Part shown: piece by piece, positions 63,756-63,845 of the stretch
Layout: each line of letters begins with the position of its first letter
Numbering within the stretch: position 1 is the first letter of the stretch
Assembly: GCA_014686905.1 (NCBI GenBank)
Contig: GCA_014686905.1_4093.1
Origin: a phage
Strand: one strand, 5' to 3'
Length of the DNA: 64,000 nt
Made by a program: the position numbers and the translations under genes
Notes under the pieces: model-generated
Told to the model about the DNA's origin: nothing
What the model saw: the letters and a program-made list of their open reading frames with translations, nothing else
The model's database searches: none

Positions 63756-63845
63756 GGTCCCGTTGCCTAGCGTCCGAAGGCAGCCGACTCATAATCGGTC
63801 ACAGTTAATGACACACCACTGGTTAGAATCCAGTCGGGACCACCA
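63756..63845 (+). tRNA. tRNA-like gene, anticodon CAT (Met/Ile2-type) with atypical 18-nt variable region
   Basis: Perfect acceptor GGTCCCG/CGGGACC plus CCA, D-stem GCCT/AGGC, anticodon arm GCCGA-CTCATAA-TCGGT, T-arm ACTGG-TTAGAAT-CCAGT; extra arm poorly paired. Confidence 0.5.

Follow-up and report, generated by a model that had tools for sequence, protein, structure and literature searches.

A CAU tRNA with a conserved extra arm in Asteriusvirus jumbo phages is probably an AUA-decoding variant of tRNAIle2

A 90-nt CAU tRNA gene and its neighbours

The window, by which we mean the whole stretch of 64,000 nucleotides that was analysed, comes from an Asteriusvirus jumbo coliphage: its last 3 kb are 99.9% identical to phages G17, phAPEC6, and Sharanji. 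It is AT-rich (about 33% GC), and ARAGORN calls six tRNA genes near its 3' end. With PMC11895373 included, the phage has seven tRNAs in total (Gly-UCC, Ser-UGA, Arg-UCU, Ser-ACU, a CAU tRNA, Asn-GUU, and Thr-UGU). The gene at 63756-63845 is the sole CAU tRNA of this phage, and the other six tRNAs are all for A/U-ending codons. The set is much like that of phage T4.

The CAU tRNA gene is 90 nt long and lies on the + strand (Table 1). ARAGORN labels it tRNA-Met(cat), and the Rfam tRNA family (RF00005) matches 63756-63845 with 50.3 bits (E = 8e-8 over the whole window). The gathering score is 29, so the cloverleaf lies above the curated threshold of that family. An earlier note, made from the sequence alone, had described a tRNA-like gene with a CAT anticodon at this place; it named ARAGORN as a check, and a better fold as part of another structured RNA as a reason to give the idea up. 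ARAGORN calls a tRNA of 90 nt with exactly these coordinates, and a permissive Rfam search of 63756-63845 found no competing family at E <= 1. The minimum-free-energy (MFE) fold of the single sequence is not a cloverleaf and includes GUCA/UGAC pairing in the variable region, and we dropped this alternative because the pairing is not conserved in relatives. Small ORFs that overlap the gene look spurious.

All of the parts that the note had listed (a perfect acceptor stem, the encoded CCA, a D arm, an anticodon arm with the loop CTCATAA, and a T arm) are confirmed from the sequence. The acceptor stem GGUCCCG/CGGGACC has seven Watson-Crick pairs (63756-63762 with 63835-63841), the junction to the D arm is U8 U9, and the acceptor/T-stem geometry is the standard 7/5. 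The D loop has 9 nt, with U19 at 63773 and the extra nucleotides 20a and 20b, as in class II tRNAs of the Ser/Tyr type. The anticodon CAU is at 63790-63792. The T loop is odd, in that A56 (63825) takes the place of the usual C56; it matches U19.

Table 1. Coordinates of the features discussed. Positions are those of the window, except for the tRNA(CUA) genes, which are given by locus.
Feature	Coordinates	Strand	Basis and remarks
Whole CAU tRNA gene	63756..63845	+	ARAGORN, Rfam; class-II-like shape, encoded CCA
Acceptor stem, 5' strand GGUCCCG	63756..63762	+	Sequence; C4 and C5 paired with G69 and G68
D arm GCCU-AGCGUCCGA-AGGC	63765..63781	+	Sequence
Anticodon arm GCCGA-CUCAUAA-UCGGU	63783..63799	+	G27·U43 wobble on top
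Variable region CACAGUUAAUGACACACC, 18 nt	63800..63817	+	Spacer CACA, hairpin GUU-AAU-GAC, tail ACACC ending in C48
T arm ACUGG-UUAGAAU-CCAGU	63818..63834	+	Sequence; unusual loop UUAGAAU
Acceptor stem, 3' strand CGGGACC, with A73 and encoded CCA	63835..63845	+	Sequence; A73 and CCA at 63842-63845
tRNA-Ser(ACU)	63657..63748	+	ARAGORN, Rfam; 7 nt upstream of CAU tRNA
tRNA-Asn(GUU)	63850..63922	+	ARAGORN, Rfam; 4 nt downstream of CAU tRNA
Promoter-like site TTGACT-17-TAAAAT with TG extension	63618..63646	+	Consensus scan, 10/12 matches
tRNA(CUA)	L002:1366-1439
tRNA(CUA)	L003:1933-2006
tRNA(CUA)	L007:358-431
tRNA(CUA)	L017:2000-2073
tRNA(CUA)	L031:854-927
tRNA(CUA)	L219:2185-2260

The gene is the middle one of a three-tRNA cluster. 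A promoter-like site at 63618-63646 lies 11 nt upstream of the cluster and, judging by its match to the consensus, may act as its promoter; the CAU tRNA is presumed to be co-transcribed with tRNA-Ser(ACU). The latter (63657-63748) has an unmodified-looking A34, which is rare in bacteria, and inosine at position 34 of the anticodon ACU would also read AGA (Arg). In the ORFs of the window, AGU is used at 23.1 versus 4.0 per 1000 codons for AGC. A tRNA-specific adenosine deaminase has been reported for the near-identical phage Sharanji (PMC11895373).

Exchange of the CAU and Asn tRNAs as a cassette

An ordinary 75-nt class I tRNA(CAU) sits in the same slot in slurp01, 121Q, SP27, and about 10 further Asteriusviruses. 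In these phages the flanking DNA matches that of the window at about 100% identity as far as the 5' end of the CAU tRNA, and does so again from the ATG of the next ORF. Between these points (63756-63922 of the window versus L005:3978-4217 of slurp01), the two versions of the CAU tRNA and tRNA-Asn are non-homologous, with the same anticodons. As the flanks are about 100% identical and the tRNAs differ, we conclude that the CAU tRNA and tRNA-Asn have been exchanged as one cassette.

The 75-nt tRNAs (those of slurp01, 121Q, and SP27, and tRNA7 of Serratia phage BF) thus share with the 90-nt tRNA the slot, the flanking genes, and the anticodon. They also share C4-G69, C5-G68, and G27·U43, and belong to the same small set of rare-codon tRNAs. 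They differ in being class I, with a 5-nt variable loop, and the homology extends only to general tRNA features. The tRNAIle of phage T4 is a similar case to these 75-nt tRNAs. The 75-nt tRNAs of slurp01 (L005:3978-4052) and phage BF (L219:2601-2675) have the T loop AUCGUUC, in which A54 and U58 stand the other way round from the usual U54-A58, so that a second unusual elbow occurs in the same slot.

A conserved family with a covarying cloverleaf

The 90-nt tRNA is 100% identical in G17, phAPEC6, Sharanji, ECO103 4-12-1, and EC22.5-2, and six Asteriusvirus records carry identical or near-identical copies. Copies at 78-84% identity are found in Erwinia phage Kaldavass and Xanthomonas phages XbC2 and XaC1. 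To collect more distant members we used a pattern made of the D arm and the anticodon loop only, which is blind to the variable region. (An earlier pattern built on the variable-region sequence gave 69 loci, only 4 of them real; the D-arm and anticodon pattern was cleaner, with L092 as a single chance match.) It brought in IMG/VR contigs of 366-371 kb, a freshwater metagenome group, and contigs binned with Cellvibrionaceae, Phocaeicola, and Saccharimonadia genomes. The same pattern also found a relative with a short loop in Paenibacillus filicis. The D arm of the family, CTAGNGNCCGANGSC, is conserved. None of 5,426 E. coli genomes gave a blastn match to the 90-nt tRNA, so it is not host-derived.

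The stems of the cloverleaf are maintained by compensatory change. In a set of 14 distinct homologues, 97% of cells are paired, and both sides have changed in 18 of the 25 pairs tested. None of 500 shuffled controls reached this level, and with slid partners pairing collapses to 27-49%. All 7 pairs of the acceptor stem are kept and 6 covary; all 5 pairs of the anticodon stem covary, around an invariant loop. On a hand-curated alignment of the family, RNAalifold returns the cloverleaf together with a 3-bp hairpin in the variable region.

The tertiary pairs are conserved as well. U8, A14, G15, C48, and G18 are invariant in the family, as are A73 and CCA across phages of different host genera, and the tertiary pairs U8-A14, G15-C48, and G18-U55 are conserved, along with a covarying pair at 19-56. 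The latter is G-C in 10 of the 14 sequences, U-A in 3, and A-U in 1, and is never broken. Because A56 always goes with U19, this elbow pair explains the odd T loop, and its three-way covariation is strong evidence that the RNA would fold as a normal L-shaped tRNA. The suggestion in the earlier note that the gene might encode a tRNA-like stable RNA can therefore be set aside: this is a complete tRNA, with covarying stems, tertiary pairs, an invariant anticodon loop, A73, and CCA.

Two relatives of the tRNA are in decay. Directly after the 90-nt tRNA in JNE01 lies a chimeric pseudo-tRNA (L075:2596-2668) in which the 5' half of the Asn tRNA is fused to a CAU anticodon arm and the acceptor stem is broken. 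The other is a decayed family member (L077:2686-2769) whose variable region is shortened and whose T arm is broken.

The variable region is a constrained mini-hairpin

Within the 18-nt variable region of the window tRNA only GUU and GAC pair (63804-63806 with 63810-63812, around the loop AAU). The earlier note had allowed at most a 3-bp stem, which is right, but this is no loose pairing: the stem is a conserved mini-hairpin that other subfamilies have in versions of different sequence. These have a 3-bp stem of UCC/GGA, or of UUC/GAA with a GUAA loop. Insertions and deletions fall in the loop of the mini-hairpin (AAU, AAC, AACCA, AAUCA), and in one member the stem is lengthened to 4 bp. The region ends in a CANC tail in all members, and the last C can pair with the invariant G15. 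In the main subfamily, 28% of the columns of the variable region vary; for the acceptor stem the figure is 86%, and for the anticodon stem it is 100%. The region thus shows the behaviour of a loop under constraint, not of a free spacer. In the Paenibacillus relative, the flanks of the variable region are present and the hairpin is missing, as if a module had been inserted or deleted.

Among the tRNAs of bacteria and phages, an extra arm is regarded as a hallmark of Leu, Ser, Tyr, and Sec. With 18 nt and a 3-bp stem-loop, the window tRNA has the long variable arm of class II, though one of the shortest; the extra arm of E. coli tRNATyr is likewise short, with about 3 bp. Other class-II-like features are the extra nucleotides after G19 in the D loop and a 13-22 pair that is weak or absent in some family members. 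However, the CAU tRNAs differ from the Leu, Ser, and Tyr tRNAs in more than their anticodon. They have A73 where tRNASer has G73, lack the G34-U35 of tRNATyr, and do not carry the identity set of any of the three; 3-4 unpaired nt precede the hairpin and 4-5 follow it; and their extra region is conserved in sequence, not free to vary. The earlier note was right to call the combination of a CAU anticodon and a long, weakly paired variable region non-standard in bacteria, and the same holds for their phages. Our literature searches turned up no account of phage CAU tRNAs that have a long variable arm.

The extra arm keeps its sequence in phages that infect Escherichia, Erwinia, or Xanthomonas, as well as in unrelated metagenomic contigs, which suggests that it is tolerated and probably selected for. 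It is not essential, as sister phages that have the 75-nt tRNA also infect E. coli. Candidate roles for the arm are to stabilise the core and elbow, to alter recognition by MetRS, TmcA, or TilS, or to escape tRNA-cleaving defences.

A tRNAIle2-type elongator for AUA

We propose, with a probability of about 0.7, that the 90-nt gene encodes a functional, class-II-shaped elongator of the tRNAIle2 type that supplies AUA decoding. The earlier note had called the anticodon Met/Ile2-type and the tRNA an unusual initiator or elongator. Elongator fits. Initiator does not: an initiator has a mismatch at 1-72, the pairs A11-U24 and G12-C23, and a run of three G-C pairs that forms the bottom of its anticodon stem (PMC1635315), whereas here G1-C72 is paired, 11-24 and 12-23 are both C-G, and there is no GGG/CCC run, so that initiator tRNAfMet is ruled out. 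As between Met and Ile2, the latter is favoured by the determinants, by elimination, by equivalence of the slot, and by codon demand.

The positive determinants of E. coli TilS are C4-G69 and C5-G68, while E. coli tRNAMet has U4-A69 and A5-U68 in their place and the TmcA acetylase needs C27-G43 and is blocked by G27·U43 (PMC2500205; PMC11947777). The window tRNA has C4-G69, C5-G68, and G27·U43, and thus carries the determinants for TilS and none of the three pairs of an elongator tRNAMet (U4-A69, A5-U68, C27-G43). In the family, C5-G68 is present in 14 of 14 members and C4-G69 in 10 of 14; the four distant members with U4-A69 (L088, L091, L094, and L095) count against the Ile2 reading, although their hosts may differ. 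The TmcA determinant is absent from the window tRNA, and position 27-43 is C-G in just 1 of the 14. As in tRNAIle2, the loop is C32-U33-C34-A35-U36-A37-A38 and the discriminator A73, both invariant in the family.

The likeness to E. coli tRNAIle2 (ileX/ileY) goes further. The two share the loop CUCAUAA, the pairs G27·U43, C29-G41, G30-C40, A31-U39, C4-G69, and C5-G68, the bases G1, G2, and C6, A73, and CCA. The anticodon stem is identical to that of ileX at 8 of 10 bases and to that of metT at 2 of 10, and 38 of the 49 compared stem and loop positions are identical between the window tRNA and ileX. They differ in their bodies: ileX is a 76-nt class I tRNA with the 5-nt variable loop UGGUC and the D arm GCUC-AGUGGUUA-GAGC, and the window tRNA has its 18-nt variable region with the mini-hairpin, a Ser/Tyr-like D arm, and the U19-A56 elbow. 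To our knowledge, all characterised tRNAIle2 are class I, with a variable loop of 4-5 nt, and none has a long variable region. Lacking the class I body, the window tRNA is better called a variant than an ordinary tRNAIle2. A further point counts against the Ile2 reading: U12-A23 is reportedly (from 1994 work by Nureki and co-workers) an identity element for E. coli IleRS, and the window tRNA has C12-G23 instead.

The tRNA complement of related phages argues for Ile2 by elimination. The 64-kb tRNA region of Kaldavass has 33 annotated tRNAs, 30 of which are called by ARAGORN. They include Ile(GAU) and three kinds of CAU tRNA: an initiator-like one (A11-U24, G12-C23), a Met-like elongator (C27-G43, A5-U68), and the long-armed one. 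XbC2, which like Kaldavass has a full tRNA set with tRNAIle(GAU), has the same three CAU tRNAs, so in both phages the long-armed tRNA is distinct from the Met tRNAs. No UAU tRNA or other AUA reader was called in the 64-kb Kaldavass region, so the long-armed CAU tRNA is the only candidate there. Also, the slot of Serratia phage BF that is syntenic to those of Kaldavass and XbC2 holds the 75-nt tRNA7, whose anticodon arm and variable loop are those of E. coli ileX. As to demand, AUA makes up 13.9 per 1000 codons in the ORFs of the window, several-fold above E. coli, where AUA is rare.

The same Kaldavass region holds several irregular tRNAs. ARAGORN finds one with a four-base anticodon (ttag) at L217:23631-23708, and it makes no call for four that are annotated as tRNA-OTHER or are over-long, with 109-122 nt (L217:22289-22405, 24248-24360, 14216-14337, and 30611-30719); introns or some other irregularity may be the reason. 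The CAU-tRNA slot of Kaldavass, XbC2, Serratia phage BF, and related contigs has an amber-suppressor tRNA(CUA) a short way upstream (Table 1), which hints at read-through or recoding of TAG in that lineage of jumbo phages. TAG terminates 3 of the 86 ORFs in the window.

Left unmodified, a CAU tRNA would be charged by MetRS and read AUG. A tblastn search with E. coli TilS as the query found no homologue in Asteriusvirus or in the Xanthomonas/Erwinia jumbo phages, and we dropped the idea of a phage-encoded modifier. The tRNA must then suit the host's enzyme, which fits with the conserved acceptor pairs. We envisage that the tRNA would be transcribed with tRNA-Ser(ACU) and tRNA-Asn(GUU) from the upstream promoter and processed by host enzymes, with CCA already encoded. 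Given the determinants present, host TilS would read the anticodon loop along with C4-G69 and C5-G68 and convert C34 to lysidine, and host IleRS would then charge the lysidinylated tRNA with isoleucine for the decoding of AUA. Pseudomonas jumbo phages of the PA5oct, MIJ3, and Callisto type (H61-H69) have a protein homologous to the catalytic N-terminal part of TilS (27% identity over residues 17-188), so some jumbo phages may bring their own lysidine synthetase, unlike the window phage.

Alternative explanations

It is unlikely, in our judgement, that the gene is instead an extra elongator tRNAMet, with C34 unmodified or acetylated, that is charged by MetRS and reads AUG. The anticodon is CAU, the gene is labelled tRNA-Met in nearly all GenBank records, and MetRS is driven mainly by the CAU anticodon (PMC1635315). 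Such a tRNA might even let some AUA be read as Met through its weak 27-43 pair: near-cognate reading has been proposed for tRNAs with 4-bp anticodon stems (PMC13092985), and in the family, position 27-43 is a C·A or C·U mismatch in several cases. However, C27-G43 is absent and pairs 4-69 and 5-68 are C-G where E. coli tRNAMet has U-A and A-U, Kaldavass and XbC2 already have a separate Met-like elongator, and the same slot is elsewhere occupied by an ileX-like gene. Nor is AUG scarce for the host, while the other six phage tRNAs all target rare A/U-ending codons. We give far less weight to mis-acylation, in which LeuRS, TyrRS, or SerRS would charge the tRNA and AUG or AUA would be partly recoded. 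The D arm and the extra arm are class-II-like, and A73 is the discriminator of E. coli tRNALeu and tRNATyr, but TyrRS needs G34 and U35, which are absent, a tRNALeu core needs a 15-48 arrangement other than G15-C48, and the discriminator of E. coli tRNASer is G73, so that A73 together with an arm of only 3 bp suits SerRS poorly. Also, no close class II parent (Tyr, Ser, or Leu) was found among the ARAGORN-called tRNAs of the Kaldavass region, so neither a recent anticodon switch nor a recent origin from a class II tRNA of the same genome is supported. There are precedents for an extra arm with the anticodon of an amino acid that is normally served by class I tRNAs, namely nematode nev-tRNAs (PMC3333845, PMC4300185) and bacterial allo-tRNAs (PMC5389517). 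The nev-tRNAs are the nearest conceptual precedent for a class-II-shaped CAU tRNA: they are class II-shaped with Ile or Gly anticodons, and nev-tRNAIle(UAU) is by its anticodon an AUA reader (PMC3333845, PMC4300185), but they are eukaryotic and are charged with leucine in vitro. The allo-tRNAs have 8/4 or 9/3 acceptor/T-stem geometry and serine identity, for which G73 or U73 and a long arm are required (PMC5389517), whereas the window tRNA has 7/5 geometry, A73, an arm of only 3 bp, and Ile2-type determinants. Because nev-tRNAs are charged with leucine, we keep mis-charging formally alive, at a very low probability. We do not expect the genetic code to differ, because phages with near-identical proteomes use a class I tRNA in the same slot.

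A role mainly in counter-defence, with decoding secondary, strikes us as improbable. A replacement or decoy CAU tRNA with an altered body would escape or soak up tRNA-cleaving nucleases, and a bacterial Schlafen nuclease does cleave tRNAMet(CAU) and tRNAIle(CAU) in E. coli (PMC13056530). One family member (L093) lies in a tRNA array with RtcB, the Paenibacillus relative is beside RlaP, RNase T, and toxin-immunity genes, and long-armed CAU tRNAs recur in viral contigs, with at least 93 distinct sequences. We take the Schlafen and RtcB links to the extra arm as leads, not evidence. The known nucleases cut the anticodon arm, whose loop is identical here to those of host ileX and metT and whose stem differs from that of ileX by one base pair only; and sister phages of the same host species get by with the 75-nt form. 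Finally, the gene could be a decaying or non-functional relic, a reading for which one could point to the two decayed relatives and to the MFE fold without a cloverleaf. It is effectively refuted by the covariation: the stems are perfect and covarying, the tertiary pair covaries, and the anticodon loop, A73, and CCA are invariant across host genera. The tRNAIle2-type elongator is thus our preferred reading.

Extra arms on other viral CAU tRNAs

We also made an unbiased scan of viral contigs for CAU anticodon loops that have a canonical T loop 17-30 nt further on, with confirmation by ARAGORN. The scan gave at least 93 distinct long-armed CAU tRNAs, with variable regions of 9-22 nt (IMG/VR loci L098-L215; examples are L151, L123, L105, L129, and L098). 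A 1-72 mismatch is present in 45 of the 93 listed, and 33 of those 45 also have A11-U24, another initiator hallmark; these initiator-like tRNAs, about half of those listed, have an extra arm of 4-6 bp. Pair 1-72 is intact in 43 of the 93 listed, including 9 of the window-tRNA family. Among the matches listed there are at least two other elongator-type families with a mini-hairpin, with the variable regions TGATGAGGTTAATTCTTCAC and AGACGAAAGTCCATT. Among phages, then, CAU tRNAs with an extra arm seem to be a recurrent feature.

Two family members have RNA-repair or conflict-type neighbourhoods, going by the genes around them. One lies in a 16-tRNA array that is interrupted by an RtcB RNA ligase (L093:2919-4169) and an HNH endonuclease (L093:1682-2227). 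The other is the Paenibacillus relative, which lies with a tRNA-Leu(UAA) beside RlaP, RNase T, metallophosphoesterase, Imm50, and SUKH genes (L095:4234-6923).

A bolder idea, which we find doubtful, is that the extra-arm CAU tRNAs make up a phage-specific class (the Ile2-type family and the initiator-like tRNAs) in which the arm is a selected device. It would shield Met, Ile, and initiator tRNAs from host defences or modification enzymes, or mark them for a phage partner. If this were true, phages would have a semi-private decoding channel for AUG and AUA.

Implications

For the engineering of tRNAs, as with aptamer tags or reassignment of the AUA codon, a natural tRNAIle2 scaffold that tolerates an insertion at a given site could be of use. 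A conserved extra-arm CAU tRNA also poses the question of whether TilS, IleRS, and MetRS tolerate the arm or use it, and the recurrence of arms on phage CAU tRNAs raises the question of why phages attach them. For annotation, the tRNA-Met label on the 90-nt gene, and probably on its 75-nt counterpart, most likely should be that of an AUA-reading Ile tRNA. Relabelling these genes in this way changes how the codon adaptation of the phages is interpreted.
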